The notes under the pieces are model-generated. The model searched no databases. It saw only the letters and a program-made list of their open reading frames with translations, and was not told where the DNA came from. The position numbers and the translations under genes are program-made. Of a DNA stretch of 64,000 bases, positions 2,223-46,713 are shown piece after piece. The stretch lies in contig JBAXGG010000001.1 of NCBI GenBank assembly GCA_037139495.1, positions 3,025 to 67,024 on the forward strand, given 5' to 3'. The DNA comes from Candidatus Saccharimonadota bacterium. GTDB lineage: Bacteria > Patescibacteriota > Saccharimonadia > Saccharimonadales > JAUPVS01. The first letter of the stretch is position 1, and every line of letters starts with the position of its first letter.

Positions 2223-3605
2223 CTAGGATACTATAGCGTAGATGGCAGCGATTCCGGCCGCACCCATTAGTGCCGTAACCATCCAGCCCATCACAGTTAC
2301 CGAGCGACTGTTAGCCCACTCGCCCATAATCTTCTTGTTACTGCTAATTAAAACAATCAATAATATAACAACAGGGGCAACTATACCATTTGCGACAGCC
2401 GAGTAAATCAGCGCTTTGATGGGGTCAAGGCCGATAAAGTTCAAGCCTAGTCCGACGAACATCGAAATAATAATGATGCCGTAAAAGGCGTGAGCCTGCT
2501 TCAGTTTAGAATTGAGACCCTCCTTCCACAGGAAGCTCTCCGAGAAGGCATAGCTGGTTGAACCGGCCAAAACGGGAATTGCCAGCAAACCGGTACCGAT
2601 AATACCAACGGCGAATAGTAGGAAAGTGGCATTTCCAGCGAACGGTCTTAAAGCCTCTGCAGCCTGTGCAGCCGAAGTTATCGTGGTAATTCCGTGTGGG
2701 AATAAAACCGCTCCACAAGCGGCGATAATAAAAAACATCACTACGTTAGATAGCAGCATGCCCGACCAAACATCGATTCGCATACTTTTTACGTCAGACT
2801 TACTAGCTCCCTGTCGGGATACGACGGTAGTCTTACCCTGGACAATCTGTTCTTCAACTTCTTGGGAGGTTTGCCAGAAGAATAGGTACGGCGAGATGGT
2901 AGTACCCAGGATAGCGCAAATTAACAGCATTTGCTCTTTGCTCCAGGTCATATGTGGGATAAATGAGTGATGCAAAACATCTGTCCAATTGATATGGGCA
3001 AGCAAAGCCGACCCAACGTAAGCAAACAACACCATCGCCAACCATTTTAGGTATTTAGCGTAACGAGCGTAAGGTGTAAAAATCTGTAGACCTAGGCTAA
3101 CGACCGTAAAGCCAATAACCAGCATTGGAAAATTCAGGCTTGGTTGTAAGAGTTGTGCACCTTTGGCCATGGCGCCTAAGTCGGCACCAATGTTAAAAGC
3201 GTTAGCTGCAAATAATAGTAAGGTGCAGGCGTAAAGGACTCTCCTTGAAAAGTTCTTACGAATTGAGCCGGCTAGACCGCGGCCAGTCACTAAACCGATC
3301 CGGGCGCACATTTCTTGAACCAGGGACATCAAGGGGAAGGTAAATATAGCCATCCAAAGCAGCTGGAAGCCGTATTGAGCTCCAGCCTGAGAATAAGTGG
3401 CAATCCCAGATGGGTCATCGTCGGATGCACCGGTAGTAAGGCCGGGCCCGAGCATGTGCCAATAATCTTTGCCTTTTTTTAACATGTTAGGCGTGGCGGG
3501 TAGGTTGTGGCTTAGCTGTTGGCTAATTTGCTGACCAGCTGCAACGCCTTTATCTAATATTTGGGCGGGCGCTTCGGCGCTTTTCTGGAGTATATTTTTA
3601 TTCAT
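2223..3605 (-). CDS. mntH: Nramp-family divalent metal (Mn2+/Fe2+) transporter
   Basis: GPG...DDDPSGIATYSQAGAQYGF motif region typical of Nramp/MntH, with about 11 TM segments. Confidence 0.8.
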   Translation of the reverse strand: MNKNILQKSAEAPAQILDKGVAAGQQISQQLSHNLPATPNMLKKGKDYWHMLGPGLTTGASDDDPSGIATYSQAGAQYGFQLLWMAIFTFPLMSLVQEMCARIGLVTGRGLAGSIRKNFSRRVLYACTLLLFAANAFNIGADLGAMAKGAQLLQPSLNFPMLVIGFTVVSLGLQIFTPYARYAKYLKWLAMVLFAYVGSALLAHINWTDVLHHSFIPHMTWSKEQMLLICAILGTTISPYLFFWQTSQEVEEQIVQGKTTVVSRQGASKSDVKSMRIDVWSGMLLSNVVMFFIIAACGAVLFPHGITTITSAAQAAEALRPFAGNATFLLFAVGIIGTGLLAIPVLAGSTSYAFSESFLWKEGLNSKLKQAHAFYGIIIISMFVGLGLNFIGLDPIKALIYSAVANGIVAPVVILLIVLISSNKKIMGEWANSRSVTVMGWMVTALMGAAGIAAIYAIVS

Positions 3606-7235: not shown

Positions 7236-7277
7236 ATTACCACAGACAGCCTGGGCTCCCGCTGGTATAATAATTAT

Positions 7278-12072: not shown

Positions 12073-12537
12073 ATGCAGCCAACCAGTAAAATCAGTTTTT
12101 TAATCCAACACCTCGCCTTCTCACTTGGTCATACCAATGATCAGGTTTTACAGGAACAACTTGGTTTAGGGTTTTCACAATTTAAGCTGATGATGGTGTT
12201 ACAGAAGATGCCAAACATTCAGCAAAAACAAATTGCAAACACTCTTAATCAAACTGAAGCAAGTATCAGCCGGCAAATCAAATTGCTACACGAAAAAAGT
12301 CTGCTACAGACCACAATAAGCCCCAAGAATCGACGCGAGCACATCACTACTCTAACCTCGAAAGGTGTTCGTTATACTGAAGAAGCTCGACGAATATTGA
12401 ATAACTACTATCAGCCGATGTTTGATCAGATGAACGATAAAGACCAAGAGCAGTTATTACATCATCTTGGTACTTTGCATGACTTTATCTGTCACGATAA
12501 AAAAACCGACATGTGCCAGAAATACATTAAAGATTAA
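12073..12537 (+). CDS. MarR-family transcriptional regulator
   Basis: Winged-HTH region FSQFKLMMVLQKMPNIQQKQIANTLNQTEASISRQIKLLHEKSLL; located upstream of two MFS pumps. Confidence 0.7.
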   Translation: MQPTSKISFLIQHLAFSLGHTNDQVLQEQLGLGFSQFKLMMVLQKMPNIQQKQIANTLNQTEASISRQIKLLHEKSLLQTTISPKNRREHITTLTSKGVRYTEEARRILNNYYQPMFDQMNDKDQEQLLHHLGTLHDFICHDKKTDMCQKYIKD

Positions 12538-16135: not shown

Positions 16136-16837
16136 CTAATCGCTAGAAGTCATGAAAACTACCAATCGTTCATCAAAATCGTTTGTGCCTTGAATAATTT
16201 TACCAGCGCAAGTCATTAAGTTTAGACCAGGTTTGCTCACTAAGACAGGGGATAAAACAGTATTCATATCGACTTGATTGGCTGGGTACGTTTTGGAGCT
16301 AACGACTTTATAGTTAAAAATTCTATCATCACCACGAGTGATGCTCACAGTGTCCCCAATTTTCAGCTTCCTCAAGTCATAAAAAAGACCTTTCGCTTGC
16401 CAACTCGATAAGTGGCCAAATATAAACATTGCCCCTCTTTGTCCCGGTTTAGCGCTGCCATTGTACCAGCCGGCGTCGTTAATATTACCTGGGTTGGTAA
16501 TCTGACCATCTTTGACGTCTAAACTAAATACACGAGCCTTATAGATATTAAGTTTTGTAACTGAAATATACTTTGGTAAATCTGGAGCTACTTTGTATTT
16601 TACAAGCATATCATGAGTTGGTTTATCTATAGATGGTGAAGTGGTTATGTGAACGTCTTTTGGTATTTTGGGCCTTGTTATGTTGGAATATATTATAAAG
16701 GAGCAAATGGTTAGTCCAGCAAAGCCCATGACTATCAAAAATATCGGCAACCAAGTTAGAGTTTTCTTTATTGCTTGGTGACCATTAACCCCCGAAATTT
16801 TTGACCACTCTTTTGTCGATTTTTTCTTATAAGCCAT
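16136..16837 (-). CDS. Sortase (class E/F-like transpeptidase), N-terminally membrane-anchored
   Basis: N-terminal TM helix, conserved His region (MFIFGHLSS), TLXTC catalytic motif (LNLMTCAG) and downstream Arg. AT-rich relative to its flanks. Confidence 0.8.
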   Translation of the reverse strand: MAYKKKSTKEWSKISGVNGHQAIKKTLTWLPIFLIVMGFAGLTICSFIIYSNITRPKIPKDVHITTSPSIDKPTHDMLVKYKVAPDLPKYISVTKLNIYKARVFSLDVKDGQITNPGNINDAGWYNGSAKPGQRGAMFIFGHLSSWQAKGLFYDLRKLKIGDTVSITRGDDRIFNYKVVSSKTYPANQVDMNTVLSPVLVSKPGLNLMTCAGKIIQGTNDFDERLVVFMTSSD

Positions 16838-23961: not shown

Positions 23962-25275
23962 TTGACGTTAGCAGGTAGGACTCCTAAGCTTACAAGTAAG
24001 ATGTTAGAAAAAGCCAGAAAAATTGTTGTTCGGTTCACCACTGGCAAAAAACCACACGAATTGTCTTCCGATGACGTACAAGCGGCTCGTCAATATATTA
24101 TGCATTACTGGAAAAAGCTACAACGATATCATCCGCATGATGATGAAACGCTTTTTGGTTTGCCTAAACCATACTTGGTACCAGCTTACGAAGAAGGACA
24201 TAGTTTTGATTTCAACGAGCTTTACTACTGGGACAGCTATTTTATGGTCCAGGGTTTTTTAACTAAAGGCCACAAGGATTTAGTGACCGGTATTTTGGAG
24301 GATTTAATTTCACTCCAAAAACGCCTTAAGATTATACCTAACGCATCAAGGACATATTTAACAGGCCGTTCCCAGCCGCCTTTGCTAACTAGCTTTATTT
24401 TTGACGTTTATGAGGCCTACGATATGGGCGACAAGTGGTTGGCTGAAAACATCGCAATATCTAAGGAGGAATACCATGGTGTCTGGATGGGAGTCACTAA
24501 ACCAAATGAACGTAGAATATATCGGGGCCTGAGCCGCTACTACGATATTAATTACTTACACGACTTAGCCGAAGCCGAGAGCGCCTGGGATATGACACCA
24601 CGCTTTGGCCGTAAAGCTTTGAATTATTTACCTGTTGACCTAAATGCCTTGCTCTACAAGTACGAGACTGATTTTGCCCGCGCCGCTGAGATTGCCGGCA
24701 ACCACAAAGAGGCGCAAACTTGGCTACATAGCGCTAAGGTTCGCAAAAAAACCATGGACGAGCTTATGTGGAGCCCTTCCAGGGACTTTTACTATGACTA
24801 CGATTTTGTTCGTAAACGCCGCGGATCGGTATCTTCCCTAGCTGGTTTCTATCCGATGTGGGCCGGGATGGTCGATAAGGACCAGGCTGCAGCATTGGTT
24901 CGTATGCTAAAACGATTTGAGCACAAAGGTGGACTGTCTACTACCGACCAGCAGTTTAATCAGCGCCTACCGGGTCAGATTCCTGGTAACGGCAATACTC
25001 CAACACAGTGGGCCTACCCTAATGGCTGGGCGCCACTTCACTACATTATTATACAGGCTTTAGAGCGTTACGGTTACCACTCTGACGCCCGCAGGATTGC
25101 TTTTAAGTGGCTAAAAACTAACCTTGATTGGTTCGACAATGAAGAAATCTTTTTGGAAAAATATAACGTCGTTAACCCCGAAAAGCCTCCGATAAAGGGT
25201 CTATATCCATCACAAACTGGCTTTGGCTGGACAAATGCTATCTTCGAGCGACTCTGCCAAGATTACATCGACTGA
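23962..25275 (+). CDS. treA: Trehalase (glycoside hydrolase family 37)
   Basis: Matches both GH37 signatures: DFNELYYWDSYF (R-F-x-E-x-Y-x-W-D-x-Y type) and QWAYPNGWAP (Q-W-D-x-P-x-G-W-[PAS]-P type). The real start may be at MLEKARK (24001). Confidence 0.75.
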   Translation: MTLAGRTPKLTSKMLEKARKIVVRFTTGKKPHELSSDDVQAARQYIMHYWKKLQRYHPHDDETLFGLPKPYLVPAYEEGHSFDFNELYYWDSYFMVQGFLTKGHKDLVTGILEDLISLQKRLKIIPNASRTYLTGRSQPPLLTSFIFDVYEAYDMGDKWLAENIAISKEEYHGVWMGVTKPNERRIYRGLSRYYDINYLHDLAEAESAWDMTPRFGRKALNYLPVDLNALLYKYETDFARAAEIAGNHKEAQTWLHSAKVRKKTMDELMWSPSRDFYYDYDFVRKRRGSVSSLAGFYPMWAGMVDKDQAAALVRMLKRFEHKGGLSTTDQQFNQRLPGQIPGNGNTPTQWAYPNGWAPLHYIIIQALERYGYHSDARRIAFKWLKTNLDWFDNEEIFLEKYNVVNPEKPPIKGLYPSQTGFGWTNAIFERLCQDYID

Positions 25276-26006
25276 AAAGATGTGATGGGCATTATTTTGT
25301 CCTGAAGATTGACTATTGATGTATCGAAAGCATACTTTTCTTGATCAAGTAACATTATTGTTGCTACGCCAGAGGCAACTTTCAGTAAACCCGGACCATC
25401 TAAAACACTAACTCCGCAAGCTGTAACTTCTCGGTTATCGCTGATCGCATCAAATGAAACAGCAAACAAATCGAATGTGCTTAAGAAACCTGGTTCATGA
25501 TCTAAACTGTAACTAGGTTTGTTTACTATTCCAGCAGTATTTAATGGATTTAAAAGTCCCCTTACGCCAGATAATTTTGCATCTTTCCTGATTTTGGAGG
25601 CTGCTCTATCAAAAATGTTGTCAGACATATTGGCATGACTAATGCCAATTAAATTGAATAAGGAGATGCCGACGGCGCGTGCTACCATTACTTCATCAAG
25701 CTGTTTTGATCGGCGAGTTTCTTCGGTCATAGCATAGGCTTTAGCGCCAATGTATTGAATGACTTTAGTATAGTAAGTTGTAAAATCCAAATCTGGTGCA
25801 AAATTTGATTTCACAGATTCCACTTTTTCGCTAAGCAAGTGAGTGTAGAATCCTTTATGAATTCTAAATAGCTCTGCTTCCGAATAAGATAGAATGATAC
25901 TAGTCTTAGACTTTGCAACTTTTTCTGTTTGACGTAATTGCCTTGCCTCCGGTGAGCGAGTGAAATTCATAAAAAACATTATATCACTAATGGTCAGTAA
26001 AGTCAA
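25263..26006 (-). CDS. Hypothetical protein (orphan, AT-rich, opposite strand to all neighbours)
   Basis: 247-aa ORF with no recognisable motifs; visibly lower GC than the flanking trehalase and metG genes; 3' end overlaps the trehalase stop by 13 nt. Confidence 0.45.
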   Translation of the reverse strand: MTLLTISDIMFFMNFTRSPEARQLRQTEKVAKSKTSIILSYSEAELFRIHKGFYTHLLSEKVESVKSNFAPDLDFTTYYTKVIQYIGAKAYAMTEETRRSKQLDEVMVARAVGISLFNLIGISHANMSDNIFDRAASKIRKDAKLSGVRGLLNPLNTAGIVNKPSYSLDHEPGFLSTFDLFAVSFDAISDNREVTACGVSVLDGPGLLKVASGVATIMLLDQEKYAFDTSIVNLQDKIMPITSFQSM

Positions 26007-39206: not shown

Positions 39207-40472
39207 ATGTTTGTGGATAAAGTTGCTGTAACAATTCAAGCGGGCGATGGCGGAGATGGTCGAGTTAATTTTCGTAAGGAAAAATTCATCGATCGTGGCG
39301 GCCCGGATGGCGGTGATGGTGGCAACGGTGGTAGCATTATATTTACAGCTAGCTGGAACCAAAATACACTTGCAAATTTTCGATACCAACGCTTGTTAAA
39401 GGCAGCCGATGGTCAGCCGGGAGATAAGCAAAAAAAACACGGACGAAACGGCCAGGACATGATGATTACCGTACCGGTCGGGACTATCATAACAGATGTA
39501 GAAGGCAAGTTATTGGCCGATTTGACCGAAGATGGTCAGCAAGTGGTTATTGCTAAGGGCGGACGTGGCGGCTTTGGCAATGCTCACTTTATCTCCTCGG
39601 TTCGTCAAGCCCCCCGGGTGGCCGAAAAAGGTGAAAAAGGCGAAATGCACGAGGCGACTATGGAACTAAAGATGATTGCCGACGTTGGTTTGATTGGACT
39701 ACCTAACGCTGGTAAGTCAACTCTGTTGGCCTCAATCAGCCATGCTAAACCCGAGATTGCCGATTACCCTTTTACGACTATTAGGCCAAATCTTGGCGTG
39801 GTCGATATCGACCGGAACAATAGTCTGCTAGTAGCCGATATCCCTGGTTTAATCGAAGGAGCCAGCGAAGGTAAGGGTCTGGGTGATGAATTTTTACGTC
39901 ACGTCGAACGCACCAGTGCTCTGGCCCATCTTATAGATAGTTACTCAGATGATGTTACCGCCGATTACAAAACGATTCAGAAGGAGCTTAAAACTTACTC
40001 AGTTGACCTATCAAAGCGGCCGCAGATCGTTGTTCTTAGCAAGATAGACGGCTTGGACGATGAAATTATAAATTCAAATATAGAAATATTAAAAAAAGTT
40101 GTTCCAAAAAAAACCCAAATTATGGCAATCTCGGCACCCAGTCATAAAGGTGTTAAAGAACTAATTTTTGAGATTCAGAAGATTGTCGTTAAGGAGCGGT
40201 CCAAACAGGCTAAAAAAGTCGCTAAAGTTTTACCAGTTATTAGACTTGAGCAGGACGATAGTTGGCGAGTCGCTAAAGATACCAAAGGCTTTACTGTTAG
40301 TGGTAACAAGATCGAGCGCTTTGCGGCGCGCACTGACTTTGCGAATGCCCATGCTGTTGCTCGATTGCGTGATATTCTTAAGAAAATGGGCATCATGAAA
40401 GAACTGCAGAAGAAAGGTATTGAGCCGGGTCAACCGATTACAATTAACGGTTACGAAAGCATTGAATACTAA
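39207..40472 (+). CDS. obg: GTPase Obg/CgtA
   Basis: Gly-rich Obg fold (GGDGGDGRVNF, GGPDGGDGGNGG), G-domain GLIGLPNAGKST, DIPGLIEGA. Confidence 0.9.
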   Translation: MFVDKVAVTIQAGDGGDGRVNFRKEKFIDRGGPDGGDGGNGGSIIFTASWNQNTLANFRYQRLLKAADGQPGDKQKKHGRNGQDMMITVPVGTIITDVEGKLLADLTEDGQQVVIAKGGRGGFGNAHFISSVRQAPRVAEKGEKGEMHEATMELKMIADVGLIGLPNAGKSTLLASISHAKPEIADYPFTTIRPNLGVVDIDRNNSLLVADIPGLIEGASEGKGLGDEFLRHVERTSALAHLIDSYSDDVTADYKTIQKELKTYSVDLSKRPQIVVLSKIDGLDDEIINSNIEILKKVVPKKTQIMAISAPSHKGVKELIFEIQKIVVKERSKQAKKVAKVLPVIRLEQDDSWRVAKDTKGFTVSGNKIERFAARTDFANAHAVARLRDILKKMGIMKELQKKGIEPGQPITINGYESIEY

Positions 40473-41920
40473 TGGCGGCCAGCAGCTTATTTTTTTACGA
40501 TTTAGAAACTAGCGGGATTAACCCGCGCAGTTCTAGAATTATGCAATTCGCCGGCCAACGGACCGATCTTAAACTAAAACCAATCGGCGAACCGGTTAAT
40601 ATTTTGATCAAACTTAGCGATGACATTCTACCAGAACCGAATGCCATTATGATTACCGGGATTACACCTCAGCAGACAAAAGCTGATGGCATTACTGAGG
40701 CCGAATTCTTAAAAATCTTCAGTCATGAGATTGCAATACCAGGAACGATTTTTACTGGTTTCAACAATGTTCGATTCGATGATGAGTTCATGCGTTTTTT
40801 AAATTACCGCAACTTTTATGATCCTTATGAGTGGCAATGGCAGGATGAACGTAGTCGCTGGGATATTTTGGACGTTGTTCGGCTAACACGCGCATTACGG
40901 CCTGATGGCATTACGTGGCCGTTTGACACTGATGGTAAGCCATCTAACCGTCTAGAGATGCTTTCTAGTGTTAATGGATTAGAACACACCGATGCGCACG
41001 ATGCCTTAAGTGATGTGCGGGCCACAATTGCTCTTGCTAGACTAATATATAACAAGCAAAATAAGCTTTTTGAATATCTTCTATCGATACGCGGCAAGAA
41101 GGCTGTGGCCGATCTAGTAGATTCTGACCAACCTTTTGTGTATGCTTCAGGAAAGTATTCAGCCGATTACCAAAAAACCGCTGTTGTTACCAAGATCGCT
41201 GATCATCCAACACGCCAAGGGGCATTAGTTTATGATCTGCGACATGATCCTAACCAGTATTTAAGAAAAACTCCTAGTGAATTAGTTGAACTATGGCGTT
41301 GGAAAAAAGACGCCATCGAACCCCGGCTACCGATCAAAACGCTTCAGTATAATCGCGTACCAGCAGTGGCACCACTCGGTGTCTTAGATAAAGATTGCCA
41401 AAAACGCCTAAGAATAGACTTAGCAATTGTTAAGGCGAATCGTCAGAAGCTATCAAAAGCCAACGACTTCAAAAAAAACCTGCTCCGAGCGCTAGAGATT
41501 ATGGATAAAGACCAGCAAACCCGTTTGGTTGCGACTGATACTGAAGTTGACGCTCAGCTGTATGATAATTTCATTAGCCGCCCGGACCAGATTGTGATGA
41601 GGGCGGTTAGAGTTGCAGAACCGGACGATCTGAATGGTTTTACTAATCGGCTGATAGATCCGCGCCTTAAGGCTATCTTGCCGCTGTATAAGGCTAGGAA
41701 TTTTCCTAAGTCATTGTCGTCCGAAGAACTAGCGGAGTGGGAGAGGCATCGTCAGCAAGTACTCACCGGAGGCGGTAAACAGAGCCGGCTCGCACTATTT
41801 TTTGCGCGACTCGAAGAAATAGCCAAAACCAAGGGTATTAGCCAAGAAAAACGTTACTTACTGGAAGAACTCCACCTTTACGGCGAAAGTATTATGCCTG
41901 TTCCAGATTTCGTAGACTGA
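40472..41920 (+). CDS. sbcB: Exodeoxyribonuclease I
   Basis: DEDDh exonuclease N-terminus (FFYDLETSGINP ... QFAGQRTD) and a length of 482 aa similar to E. coli ExoI. Confidence 0.75.
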   Translation: MAASSLFFYDLETSGINPRSSRIMQFAGQRTDLKLKPIGEPVNILIKLSDDILPEPNAIMITGITPQQTKADGITEAEFLKIFSHEIAIPGTIFTGFNNVRFDDEFMRFLNYRNFYDPYEWQWQDERSRWDILDVVRLTRALRPDGITWPFDTDGKPSNRLEMLSSVNGLEHTDAHDALSDVRATIALARLIYNKQNKLFEYLLSIRGKKAVADLVDSDQPFVYASGKYSADYQKTAVVTKIADHPTRQGALVYDLRHDPNQYLRKTPSELVELWRWKKDAIEPRLPIKTLQYNRVPAVAPLGVLDKDCQKRLRIDLAIVKANRQKLSKANDFKKNLLRALEIMDKDQQTRLVATDTEVDAQLYDNFISRPDQIVMRAVRVAEPDDLNGFTNRLIDPRLKAILPLYKARNFPKSLSSEELAEWERHRQQVLTGGGKQSRLALFFARLEEIAKTKGISQEKRYLLEELHLYGESIMPVPDFVD

Positions 41921-42127
41921 TAACATCAAAGTGACGTTGATTTTGATGTTGTAGCTTTTCAGTCCTTGCTTTGTAATAGCGATAACCAAAATAGCTCAAT
42001 AATGGCCACAAGATTAGTTGATACCAAAGAAAGGTGAGTTGAAGGTGAGTGCCTGGTATTTGTCCCAGGACAATAAGTTGCATCATAATTCCAAACCCGT
42101 TTACATATACCTTAATTCTAAATCTAT

Positions 42128-42156
42128 TTGCAATAAAGTCAATAGTAGTTTATCAT
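42128..42156 (+). promoter_or_regulatory. Sigma70-like promoter (TTGCAA-17-TATCAT) upstream of the first cassette gene
   Basis: Hexamers and spacing read from the sequence; a second TGcTATAAT -10 lies at about 43016-43024 before the second cassette gene. Confidence 0.4.
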
Positions 42157-42222
42157 CCTAATGCTTAGGAGTATTTATCAATACTCTGGTAAACTAAAAT
42201 ATAAGTTTTTACGGAGACATAG

Positions 42223-43005
42223 GTGTATATGAATCGTCAGCGCAACTCGTTTAGTCAAAATGGTGTAGGAATGGAAATATGTTTTTCTGAGCAAACTACT
42301 ACGCCAGAAGAATTTGGCCGTAGTGGCTTATATATTTCTTCTCCCCCCGAAGTTCGAATAATTCGGCAGGTTAGTATTCATCCTGACGATAATGAAAGAT
42401 TACGTAATGCAGTAGACTATTTAGGTCAAAAAAACTACGGAAAAGGTAAGGCTACTGCTATTGGATCCCTAGCATGTACCTATGTATCTGCCGAAGAAAT
42501 GGCTCGAATGCTAGAAAATAAGTACCCTAAAATATATCAAAATCGTCGCAAGATAACTCAAATGCAACGGCGCATGGCAAAAGACTATAAACAATTCGTT
42601 CAAAATTCAGGTAGATCCGTAGAGGAAGCAGTAATGTCGGGTTTTAGAGTACAGATTGACGGTCACGATGACGAGCAAACAGATGTATTCCCGTTAATTG
42701 ATGAAATGAAATGGTCGGCCGGAGATTTTTTTATTTCTGATTATGAAAAATATAGCCACAACACAATCGGACTAGACCTTTCAGAGAACTTAACTTTGAT
42801 GGCTGAAATGGATGAAACAGTTGCATACTTAAGGGATGAGGGACTTAACATAAACTCCATAGACAGGACCCGTGAACCACACCTGAGTATATTTACAACT
42901 TTCGGCAGTCTGGGGAACACTAGTTTGCACGCTATGAGCCATCCCAACCCTGTTACTTTGGAGCTTCCAAAAATGTGGGTTAATTCTAGCGGGATCACTA
43001 TTTAA
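42223..43005 (+). CDS. Hypothetical protein, no recognisable family (AT-rich cassette gene 1)
   Basis: 260-aa ORF with lower GC than its flanks; only weak H-x-[ST]-x dyads (SHNTI, PHLSI); its own promoter. Confidence 0.45.
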   Translation: MYMNRQRNSFSQNGVGMEICFSEQTTTPEEFGRSGLYISSPPEVRIIRQVSIHPDDNERLRNAVDYLGQKNYGKGKATAIGSLACTYVSAEEMARMLENKYPKIYQNRRKITQMQRRMAKDYKQFVQNSGRSVEEAVMSGFRVQIDGHDDEQTDVFPLIDEMKWSAGDFFISDYEKYSHNTIGLDLSENLTLMAEMDETVAYLRDEGLNINSIDRTREPHLSIFTTFGSLGNTSLHAMSHPNPVTLELPKMWVNSSGITI

Positions 43006-43048
43006 TACAACAATATGCTATAATAGCAAGCGGAGTAAACAGTAAATT

Positions 43049-43855
43049 ATGCCAGTACGTGATGAGAAGGATTTCAGTTACATTGATATGAGCCGAGCCG
43101 TTGAAGGCCCTGGCATAATTAAGTTTTTAGGTGCAGTCGATTACCATAGCAGAGAAATATTTGGTAATGATCAATCAGGCATAGTTGTCATCCCTGGCCA
43201 TCTGGACGAGGATGCTAGGATTAACAGTAGTAACGAGGATTACCTATCATCCGAATTAGAAATCAAAACGGTGGGTAGCCCGAGGTTTAAAGTATACGAT
43301 GCAGAGGATATAAGGTTTACGTTGCTCCATCGCCGCCAACCGAAGGAGCTGAATAAGACGAGCAGGTTATTGTGGGCAGGTCGTAGGACAACTAGAATAC
43401 AAGAGCAAACATACCATCCAATTGATGTAGATACAGATCAGGCCCCGCTATTTAAGACTAGTCCACTCTATGAGGCTTTGGTCAGGATTGGTCTTCAGTA
43501 TGATGTGCCTAGCCAGGATAACGTACCGATTAAATTTTCGGCAATTACTTTGAACCCAGATTCTGATTTTGGCGATAAAGGCATTGAGCTGGCATTGATT
43601 CCGTCCCCTGATGACAAAGTTACTCGTATGTTGGTTGATCAGATTCAACTATGCTATACAGCTCTAAAGCAAAAATCAAAATGGGCTGTATATCCGAATA
43701 ACGGGCCATTACCCTTAACTGTGCCATTTGCACGTTTGCCACGAGATGTTACTGAATCAGAGATAAAACAGTTTATAAAAGTTATGGACGAAAACTTACT
43801 TCCAGTCCGTGGCGTATTGAGTGTGATTAATCCTCGTCCCACCATTCATAACTAG
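43049..43855 (+). CDS. Hypothetical protein, no recognisable family (AT-rich cassette gene 2)
   Basis: 268-aa ORF with lower GC than its flanks; no motifs recognised. Confidence 0.45.
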   Translation: MPVRDEKDFSYIDMSRAVEGPGIIKFLGAVDYHSREIFGNDQSGIVVIPGHLDEDARINSSNEDYLSSELEIKTVGSPRFKVYDAEDIRFTLLHRRQPKELNKTSRLLWAGRRTTRIQEQTYHPIDVDTDQAPLFKTSPLYEALVRIGLQYDVPSQDNVPIKFSAITLNPDSDFGDKGIELALIPSPDDKVTRMLVDQIQLCYTALKQKSKWAVYPNNGPLPLTVPFARLPRDVTESEIKQFIKVMDENLLPVRGVLSVINPRPTIHN

Positions 43856-43902
43856 CTAGGGTCTAGTAAAACTTATAAGAAATCTGTATAATTAGTCGAC
43901 TT

Positions 43903-46713
43903 ATGAGCGACGCTATTTTAGTTAAAGGTGCTCGGGAGCATAACCTCAAAAATATTGATGTTGAGATTCCGCGCGGTAAATTAGTGGTAATTACCGGCTT
44001 GTCCGGCTCAGGTAAGTCGTCCCTGGCTTTTGACACCATTTACGCCGAAGGGCAACGTCGTTATGTTGAATCGCTTAGCTCGTATGCTCGACAGTTCCTG
44101 GGACTTATGGAAAAGCCGGACGTCGATCAGATAGACGGACTGAGCCCAGCAATTTCTATTGACCAAAAATCAACTAGTCGTAACCCTCGCTCGACTGTGG
44201 CCACTGTCACTGAGATTTATGATTATTTACGCCTGTTGTATGCCCGCATCGGGATTCCCCATTGCCCTGTTTGTAGTAAACCGGTTGCCCGTACAACAAG
44301 TGCTGCCATTGTTGATCAGATTACTAAATTACCAGTCGACGCCAAGATTATGATCCTAGCACCAATTATTAACTCCAAAAAAGGTGCGTTTGAGCATATA
44401 CCAGAACAATATACACGGGCCGGTTTTGCCCGGGCTCGAGTTGACGGCGTCGTTTACGCTTTGGATGAATTCCCAGAACTCGATAAGAACTACAAACATA
44501 CCATCGAAATTGTGGTTGATCGCTTAGTGAATAACGATGACAGCCGTGGCCGATTAGTCCAGTCTGTCGAGCAAGCTATAGAAGTTGCCGATGGCAAGGT
44601 TAGTGTTTTAGATGCTGCTACAAAAATTGAGAGCTTTTATAGCTTAAGATACGGCTGCCTCGACCATCCTGATGTTGCTATACCTGAGCTCGAACCACGT
44701 ACCTTCAGTTTTAACAGCCCACAAGGTGCTTGCCCGATTTGTACCGGGCTTGGCTCCCGCCTAGAGGTAGACCCTGAGCTAGTTATTCCGAATGGTCGCT
44801 TGACCCTGGCCGAAGGTGCTGTTAGGCCATATAACCGGATTAATACCGACAACTGGTACATGAAAAAACTGCAAGCTCTGGCTGATCGATATGAATTTAG
44901 TGTCCATGTCCCGACCGGTGACTTAACCAAAGCCCAAATTGAAAAAATCATGTATGGTACAGCTGACGAAACCTATAAAATATCTTTGGGCATCGGTCGT
45001 TCGTTCGATACCACCTACGAAGGGGTAATTCCAAATTTGGAACGCCGCCACAAAGAAACCGACAGTGATTTTATGCGTCGTGACATTGAGCGTTTTATGC
45101 AGGAGAGGCCTTGCCACGCTTGTCATGGGAGACGGCTTAAGCCAGAGGTGCTAGCTATTACAGTTGGCGGGCTATCGATTATGGATATTTGCGAGCTATC
45201 AATCGACGATGCCATAGACTTTTTTAAACAGCTTAAGTTGAGCGCTAAAGATGCACAAATCGCTACTCAAATATTTAAAGAAATCTCCGCTAGATTACAG
45301 TTTTTGCAAGATGTGGGCCTTAATTATCTAAGCTTATTGCGCAGTGCTGTTACCTTGAGCGGGGGTGAAGCTCAGCGGATACGTTTGGCTACGCAAATTG
45401 GTTCTGGCCTGCAAGGAGTCCTTTATGTTTTGGATGAGCCTTCGATCGGCCTTCATCAGCGTGACAACGAACGCCTAATCAAAACCCTCAAACACCTAAG
45501 AGACCTTGGCAACACAGTAATTGTTGTCGAACATGACGAAGAAACAATTCGGACCGCCGATTTCCTGTTAGACATCGGTCCGGGGGCAGGAATTCATGGT
45601 GGATACGTAGTTGCCTCTGGCACTCCGGAACAAGTATCTAGGGTACCCAAAAGTGTTACTGGCCAGTATCTTCGCGGCGAAAAGGTCATTCCAATTCCCA
45701 CAAAACGACGCAAAGGTAACGGAAAAGCCCTGGTAGTAAAGGGCGCCCGCGAGAATAACCTTCAGAATGTTACGGTCTCGATTCCTCTAGGCAAGATGGT
45801 GTTAGTAACTGGTGTATCGGGCTCGGGTAAGTCTAGTTTGATTAACGACATTGTGGCTAAAGAATTACAAGCACGTTTACATAGGGCCAATACTGTACCG
45901 GGCCGTCATGATGAAATTGACGGTATTAAGGAACTAGACAAAGCGATTGTTATTGATCAGTCGCCGATCGGTCGCACTCCACGTTCTAATCCAGCCACAT
46001 ACACTGGTCTATTTACACCAATTCGCGAATTATTCGCTAGTACACCAGAAGCCAAATTACGTGGTTATGCGGCCGGCCGTTTTAGCTTTAACGTTAAAGG
46101 TGGTCGTTGCGAAAACTGTTCTGGTGACGGAATTATAAAAATTGAGATGCACTTTTTACCGGATGTCTATGTGCCCTGCGAAGTTTGTCACGGTAAGCGC
46201 TATAACCGCGAAGCTCTAGAGATTCATTTTAAAGGTAAGGCAATTAGCGATATTTTAGAAATGACTTGCGAAGTTGCTTTAGAATTTTTCGGAAACATTC
46301 CCTCGATTGCCCGCAAGCTTCAAACCTTAGTTGATGTAGGTTTGGGCTATATCGCTCTCGGTCAATCGGCAACTACACTTAGCGGGGGTGAAGCTCAGCG
46401 TATTAAGCTGGCTACAGAATTGTCACGTCGTCCAACCGGCCGTACGCTTTATATTTTGGACGAGCCTACTACTGGTTTACACATGGCTGATATCAATAAA
46501 TTGCTGCATGTCTTGCATGCCCTAGTTGACGCCGGTAACAGTATGATTATCATTGAGCACAACTTAGACGTTATTAAAGCTGCTGACCACATTATCGATA
46601 TGGGCCCCGAAGGCGGTAGCGGCGGCGGATTTATTATTGCCGAGGGAACACCCGAGCAAGTTGCCAAGATAAAAAAATCTTACACAGGTCAGTTTTTAAA
46701 AACAATTCTTTAA
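43903..46713 (+). CDS. uvrA: Excinuclease ABC subunit A
   Basis: Two ABC ATPase modules ([11 protein letters not shown]; [10 protein letters not shown]), LSGGE signatures and zinc-finger Cys clusters; 936 aa. Confidence 0.95.

Follow-up and report, generated by a model that had tools for sequence, protein, structure and literature searches.

Background

Enzymes of the 2H phosphoesterase superfamily, to which the ThpR/LigT type belongs, use two His-Thr motifs to clamp and hydrolyse a cyclic or 2'-5' phosphodiester, and act on the phosphate ends of nucleic acids. Lineage-specific families of conserved hypothetical proteins are found in genomes of the Candidate Phyla Radiation (CPR)/Patescibacteria, and two-gene anti-phage systems are collected in PADLOC and DefenseFinder. 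A pair of adjacent genes, here called P1 and P2, was compared with all three groups. The pair is located in a stretch of 64,000 nucleotides (the window, to which all coordinates refer) from a Candidatus Saccharimonadota bacterium, corresponding to positions 3,025 to 67,024 of contig JBAXGG010000001.1 (assembly GCA_037139495.1). As reported in a preliminary description, made by reading the window alone, two open reading frames (ORFs) of 260 and 268 residues lie between sbcB and uvrA: P1 (42223-43005, + strand), which begins with GTG and has an alternative ATG two codons further on, at 42229, and its partner gene P2 (43049-43855, + strand), annotated at NCBI as hypothetical protein WCJ24_00220 of a Candidatus Saccharibacteria bacterium. 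Both products are acidic (isoelectric point 5.4-5.6), hydrophilic and cytoplasmic, with neither signal peptide nor membrane segment.

The reading favoured here, with a probability of roughly 55%, is that of a vertically inherited, Saccharimonadales-specific pair kept in a fixed slot among housekeeping genes, where P1 carries a 2H-like lobe, which probably recognises a phosphate-bearing nucleotide or RNA end.

The P1 family and its 2H-like lobe

Neither protein gave a significant match in Pfam, NCBIfam, PHROGs or PADLOC, in agreement with the preliminary description, which had been able to assign no motif or family to either of them. No match was found in PDB, where profile searches with the P1 and P2 alignments returned chance-level hits only. 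By word-indexed searches of 5.8 billion clusters the two proteins look like orphans, just 2-5 related clusters being retrieved, whereas 1.84 billion cluster representatives, searched exhaustively by HMMER with the P1 profile, yielded 170 matches at E<=1e-3 and 128 at E<=1e-10, so that the family comprises 170 or more clusters at 50% identity. Its proteins are typically about 240-300 residues long; nearly all members range between 210 and 330 residues, the few shorter ones being fragments, and all those bearing a name, which are few, are hypothetical proteins of Candidatus Saccharimonadales/Saccharibacteria. Peptide-pattern scans of GTDB genomes, JGI metagenomes and IMG/VR retrieved nothing, a result of little weight for a family too variable to be caught by exact patterns. 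No description of the P1/P2 family was found in the literature.

The alignment of 150 members (A7) defines an N-terminal block, a variable acidic linker and a C-terminal region. The N-terminal block (residues 42-109, 42346-42549, + strand) is family-specific and follows the pattern PExRIxR ... W..[FY]L..LG..NxGxGxA..LGSxAxTYVxAxEM..ML..KYP.....R; among its columns, P42 is kept in 140 of the 150 members, R48 in 138, M96 in 137, G81 in 135, G75 in 132 and N71 in 129. The C-terminal region reads W....F.V......G....GLDLS.N..L..E.......L...GLDT........P-H-phi-[T/S]-phi-F ... P..I.L..P, and includes the sole conserved H-phi-[T/S]-phi of the family, which in the window protein is P-H-L-S-I-F (residues 219-224, 42877-42894, + strand). 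Here P219 is found in 123 members, H220 in 132 (88%) and F224 in 105, and position 222 is occupied by T in 68 members and by S in a further 26.

Within this region, residues 164-250 of P1 (42712-42972, + strand) resemble the second lobe of ThpR/LigT (residues ~70-154). By hhalign, the P1 profile was compared with an alignment of ThpR (LigT) for which 11 diverse sequences were taken from E. coli K-12 and from records of plasmids or chromids: the full family matched at E 2.3e-4 over 59 columns, and the portion spanning residues 160-260 matched at E 6.4e-5 (probability 64%) over 84 columns, falling onto ThpR residues 70-154, with P219-H220-L-S222-I-F aligned to the P-H-x-T-L-A-R of ThpR. The observed score of 30.6 compares with a maximum of 16.7 (minimum E 0.025) for 60 column-shuffled ThpR alignments and with 13.9 for the reversed one. 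In addition, a ThpR hidden Markov model (HMM) scored 24 family members above the best shuffled sequence, nearly all of them with the second half of ThpR (model positions ~50-155) aligned to their C-terminal third. When the 150 members were scanned against Pfam, 2_5_RNA_ligase2 was the only model matched by more than one of them (2 members, E 0.05), and one other matched Corona_NS2A (E 0.019); we take both models to be part, with LigT_PEase, of the Pfam clan of 2H phosphoesterases. Some ~20 other weak matches were scattered singletons. The three weak 2H matches were not recovered when the ten members scoring best against the ThpR HMM were rescanned.

On these profile comparisons, the C-terminal ~90 residues of P1 are predicted to be homologous to the second lobe of ThpR/LigT-type 2H phosphoesterases. 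A 2H-phosphoesterase-like fold had been suggested speculatively in the preliminary description, on account of two weak His dyads in P1, SHNTI and PHLSI. Only the latter (residues 219-223) held, being the conserved family motif in a lobe that matches ThpR/LigT, while SHNTI is not conserved, a His occurring at position 179 in 7 of 150 members. Two candidates for a first 2H motif, W60-x61 (His in 24 of 150) and T86-Y-V-[ST]-A, were tried and rejected, neither being significant.

P2

P2 was analysed on an alignment of 10 sequences (A8), whose conserved blocks are RPV, G.PRLKVYD..DLRLTLL.RR, RIGL.YDV, EL.LIP.P.D..T.ML..Q...C and PFARLP.D.T..E. The possibility that P1 and P2 are paralogues was rejected (BLASTP E = 2; hhalign profile-profile E = 0.25). 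Compared with ThpR by hhalign, P2 gave E 0.12, and its comparisons with ThpR and with either half of P1 all gave E >= 0.057; these values, including that against P1, are inside the null range. P2 is not claimed as a 2H protein, because its weak alignments (E 0.057-0.28), although plausibly placed, do not leave that range. Some of them coincide with a unit of ThpR in which a helix is followed by a G-loop and a strand, which is recorded as a lead only.

Genomic context and inheritance of the pair

The genes of the block hosting the pair were assigned by Pfam in the window, and the same block was found, as far as contigs reach, in 10 independent related loci, where the identity of P1 to the window protein decreases from 46% to 23%. 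The order is ruvX, yceG, a LysM/CHAP gene, obg, sbcB, small minus-strand ORFs (a 64-residue ORF and/or a PGPGW protein), P1, P2, uvrA, dedA (- strand), rplY and an ABC gene (- strand). In the window, sbcB (40472-41920, + strand) encodes exonuclease I (ExoI), identified by the Pfam domains RNase_T and Exonuc_X-T_C, and is the upstream neighbour; uvrA (43903-46713, + strand) is the downstream one. A homologue of P2 directly follows P1 in 10 of the 11 informative loci, counting the window; the others are L001, L003, L004, L007, L009 and L011-L014, and the exception is L010. uvrA is located directly 3' of P2 in all loci reaching that far, including L001-L004, L007 and L012, with the exception of L011, where a 147-residue gene on the opposite strand intervenes. 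sbcB lies upstream on the + strand in L003, L006, L007, L010, L012, L013 and L014, separated from P1 by one to three small or inserted genes.

Three loci show departures from this order. In L010 (6001-7150) P1 is longer (330 residues), P2 is absent and uvrA starts 157 nt after P1; the uvrA of this locus is split over several ORFs and assembly errors are possible. In L011 (599-5895) six minus-strand genes are located between sbcB and P1, encoding a protein with AMP-binding, PP-binding and acyltransferase domains, a phosphopantetheinyl transferase, a hydrolase, a PGPGW protein, a prephenate dehydratase and one small ORF. The sbcB-P1 junction is therefore a spot where the block accepts insertions, P1-P2 staying intact. 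In L001 (5372-6715) two extra genes with no counterpart in the window, coding for 277 residues with a HELKH metalloprotease-like motif and for 160 residues, are found between uvrA and dedA, and this gap marks a variable spot beside the conserved block.

Sequence identities across loci are 81-85% for UvrA, 50-85% for SbcB, 23-63% for P1 and 24-51% for P2; the window UvrA, in particular, is 81-83% identical to those of L001, L007, L011 and L012. The rate of evolution of P1 and P2 is about double that of SbcB and greatly exceeds that of UvrA. Their divergence follows that of SbcB, with Spearman coefficients of 0.72 (p 1e-5) for P1 and 0.76 (p 1e-3) for P2, where the p values are indicative only, locus pairs being non-independent. 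P1-P2 is an old, vertically inherited and fast-evolving pair, resident in a conserved housekeeping block.

Base composition and the anti-phage hypothesis

The preliminary description had presented the two genes as an AT-rich, compositionally deviant cassette inserted into a DNA-repair neighbourhood, and as a candidate small anti-phage or other mobile accessory system. In favour of this proposal, the proteins match nothing recognisable, evolve fast and would be transcribed independently. P1 has a slightly low GC content, 0.401 against a mean of 0.449 for the genes of the window (z = -2.0), but P2 does not (0.428, z = -0.9), and three other genes in the window have values below both, so that 'AT-rich' describes P1 mildly and P2 not at all. 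In the relatives, the GC content of P1 and P2 tracks that of their own locus, over a range of 0.45-0.54.

A check suggested at the time, the presence or absence of the pair at the sbcB-uvrA junction of related genomes, gave a uniform answer: the pair occupies the same position in all loci sampled, down to ~23% identity. Since it has a fixed position in these relatives and ordinary host composition, the very points on which the preliminary description had proposed to judge the idea, it is not an inserted cassette. Nor does it look like a horizontally acquired island, its GC content being native to each host locus and its divergence concordant with that of SbcB. The suggested scan for defence systems, run with PADLOC, returned no match for P1 or P2; over the 150 P1-family members it yielded four unrelated singletons at E<=0.01, about the number expected by chance, and over the 10 P2-family members none. 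Homologues of P1 or P2 were not found in phage, plasmid and IMG/VR collections, and no integrase, repeat or tRNA flanking the pair was seen in the window. A defence or mobile system inserted between sbcB and uvrA is, on this evidence, very improbable.

Compositional deviation is stronger elsewhere in the window. The lowest GC content (0.375, z = -3.1; 0.315 at third codon positions) is that of a 247-residue ORF with no Pfam match (25263-26006, - strand), which is compositionally more deviant than P1 and P2 and a better candidate for recent acquisition. The two other low-GC genes encode a MarR-family regulator (12073-12537, + strand, GC 0.385) and a sortase (16136-16837, - strand, GC 0.382).

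Transcription signals and the relation to DNA repair

Each gene of the pair had been credited with a promoter of its own. The sequences in question are present, TTGCAA-17-TATCAT before P1 and TGCTATAAT before P2, but the two calls fared differently. The former (42128-42156, + strand) faces P1, fits 9 of 12 consensus positions and is followed by GGAG at 42213-42216, 5' of the gene; on the opposite strand TTGACT-16-TAGAAT (42142-42115) faces the 64-residue ORF. The position of the TTGCAA/TTGCCA -35-like element and that of TTGACT are kept in L003. However, sigma70-like -35/-10 sites are no commoner in the region than by chance (6 seen, against 7.2 +/- 2.3 expected from shuffled sequence), for which reason the P1 promoter remains unproven.

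The element preceding P2 belongs to a different category. The window contains 11 copies of TGnTATAAT where 3.5 +/- 1.7 would be expected; 0 of 100 shuffles reached 11, and 10 of the copies are located just 5' of + strand genes. The copy TGCTATAAT (43016-43024, + strand) lies 24 nt 5' of the P2 start codon and is followed by GGAG. TGnTATA[AC]T is found in the P1-P2 spacer of 8 of 9 loci (the window, L001, L003, L004, L011, L012, L013 and L014), despite proteins at ~30% identity, which makes this extended -10 element a credible conserved promoter, predicted to serve P2 itself. The copies are located at 7263, 9891, 15568, 19942, 23214, 37937, 43016, 50090, 52495 and 58630 on the + strand, and at 25978 on the - strand. 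Several end 5-8 nt before listed start codons (7278, 37951, 50106), which suggests that in this Saccharibacterium leaderless or near-leaderless mRNAs may be frequent, or that starts are mis-called.

A TATAAT -10 element (43887-43892, + strand), read from the sequence, is located 10 nt 5' of the uvrA ATG, and TATAAT or TATACT is kept 5' of uvrA in L001, L003, L004, L007, L010, L011 and L012. A promoter at this distance from the start codon implies that uvrA would have its own transcript, with a near-leaderless mRNA. A scan of the region for intrinsic terminators between P1, P2 and uvrA found none.

The latter result, together with the regular contact between P2 and uvrA and the presence of sbcB upstream in most loci, could be taken to indicate that P1 and P2 are DNA-repair accessory factors, acting with SbcB and/or UvrA, for example on blocked 3' ends or nicked intermediates, a role that would account for the invariant place of the pair just 5' of uvrA; the action of 2H enzymes on nucleic-acid phosphate ends would be in keeping with such a role. 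Adjacency says little in this case, however, as the whole ruvX-rplY block is syntenic and functionally mixed, comprising yceG, a LysM/CHAP hydrolase, obg, dedA and the gene for L25. In addition, P2 and uvrA each keep their own promoter, the contacts are broken in L011 on both sides, by the opposite-strand gene between P2 and uvrA and by the six genes between sbcB and P1, and the substrates of known 2H enzymes are RNA or nucleotides, not DNA lesions. A repair role is hence judged quite unlikely. Given the unrelated functions found in the block and the separate promoters of its genes, the location of the pair between sbcB and uvrA is probably a case of synteny frozen in a streamlined genome, and not a sign of a function in repair.

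Proposed function of P1 and P2

By analogy with 2H enzymes, the lobe of P1, with H220 and the T or S at position 222, would serve to bind a nucleotide or RNA end that bears a phosphate, and perhaps to hydrolyse it; the candidate ligands are 2',3'-cyclic phosphates, 2'-5' linkages or related phosphoesters. Because the second catalytic His-Thr motif is missing, P1 may be a binding-only pseudoenzyme; otherwise, its place may be taken by substitute residues, such as R45, R48, N71 and Y87 of the N-terminal block, or E195. P2, being near-always adjacent to P1, is most likely a partner subunit, or would act in the same pathway.

A number of observations weigh against this reading. No second conserved His exists in P1, no other column reaching more than 35% His among the 150 members, as would be needed for canonical 2H catalysis; since the two-motif arrangement that defines the superfamily was tested and not found, P1 is better described, from its profile, as a putative diverged 2H-type lobe with a single His motif than as a canonical member. 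None of the 150 members reaches a Pfam gathering threshold and no match was obtained in NCBIfam, ThpR models included. The assignment of the fold comes from profile comparison alone, at hhalign probabilities of 44-64%, and AlphaFold2 models, built from 2-3 sequences, were unusable, with a predicted local distance difference test (pLDDT) score of 33 for P1 and 29 for P2. The N-terminal half of P1 has no detectable homologue by hhalign (E 0.36 against ThpR, E 0.11 against its own C-terminal half), and P2 has neither a conserved His nor a domain recognisable in Pfam or PDB searches. Joint action of the two proteins is further questioned by the separate promoter of P2 and by its absence from L010. 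Finally, what is said of taxonomic range and 'core' status is drawn from a sample of 10 loci and a few named clusters.

Several of these points are shared by an alternative explanation, possible if somewhat doubtful, according to which the pair is structural or a relic pseudoenzyme: the two proteins would be non-catalytic and lineage-specific, for example adaptors or regulators tied to the epibiotic lifestyle, and the 2H-like lobe an evolutionary relic serving at most for ligand or protein binding. It would account for the retention of one catalytic His motif out of two, with T or S two positions after the His in just 94 of 150 members, for the fast divergence, for the lack in P2 of a conserved His or of any other obvious catalytic residue, and for the failure to detect an enzyme family in P2 or in the rest of P1. 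On the other hand, H220 and the preceding Pro are kept while other sequence falls to ~25% identity, which suggests selection, and the invariant polar residues R48, N71 and E195 would suit an active or binding site.

A bolder variant, regarded as unlikely, would make P1 and P2 a heteromeric phosphoesterase, or a sensor of RNA or nucleotide ends, specific to Saccharimonadales and built on a split or degenerate 2H scaffold: P1 would supply the sole His-Thr/Ser motif, and P2, or else the unique N-terminal domain of P1, would provide the other half-site. If true, this would add an architectural variant to the 2H superfamily and point to a conserved function, perhaps an essential one, in these episymbionts.

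Because Saccharibacteria genomes are tiny, a pair retained at one locus across the order is likely to be important, although both families lack annotation in all the libraries searched, and the link to the 2H superfamily, even through a single motif, provides a concrete biochemical lead for P1. A false lead is also removed, the pair not being a defence island. The value of these results lies mainly in the annotation of CPR 'dark matter'; they have no bearing on a long-standing open question and would not surprise a specialist.

A small ORF and an inverted repeat downstream of sbcB

The gap of ~300 nt 3' of sbcB, described earlier as containing a hairpin, also holds a 64-residue ORF (41892-42086, - strand) which had been overlooked. 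It is convergent with sbcB, overlaps its last 29 nt and encodes a predicted membrane-like product; the divergent intergenic region separating it from P1 spans 42087-42222. The ORF is 64% identical to its counterpart in L003 (1119-1313), with tblastn matches in L003, L006 and L010-L013, and displays invariant terminal motifs, MxQLIxLGQIPGT at the N-terminus and QRHFDVISLRN at the C-terminus. No family assignment was found for it.

The inverted repeat AACATCAAA/TTTGATGTT does exist (41922-41950), but it is not the intergenic separator it had been taken for, lying within the codons of the conserved C-terminus QRHFDVISLRN of the small ORF. A role as terminator after sbcB was rejected, as the repeat has no T-run and its helix is not kept in L003 or L006; judging from these features, it is probably incidental. 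An Rfam scan of positions 41000-44500 returned nothing.

Comparison with known systems

Two-gene anti-phage systems of the PADLOC/DefenseFinder type resemble the pair in being made up of adjacent genes of unassigned function and ~260 residues each, fast-evolving and provided with their own promoters. P1 and P2 differ from them in having no similarity to their HMMs, in occupying a fixed, vertically inherited locus rather than a variable island, and in having no link to mobile elements.

Similarities are also found with the lineage-specific hypothetical families of CPR/Patescibacteria, which are likewise small, fast-evolving and unannotated, and show conserved core synteny in the streamlined genomes of episymbionts. 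What sets P1 and P2 apart is that a domain can be assigned in part, as the 2H-like lobe, and that the two genes keep a fixed arrangement.

Among families of known function, ThpR/LigT appears from the profile evidence to be the closest to P1, with which it would share one lobe and one motif. Common to both are a strand, a G-containing turn, an amphipathic helix, a G-containing loop and the P-H-phi-[T/S]-phi motif at the start of a strand, and members of the P1 family keep both the PH motif and the pattern of hydrophobic residues. In contrast, P1 is ~85 residues longer, has no detectable first lobe or first H-x-T-x motif, and contains a unique, highly conserved N-terminal block; moreover, it is confined to Saccharimonadales and near-always paired with P2.

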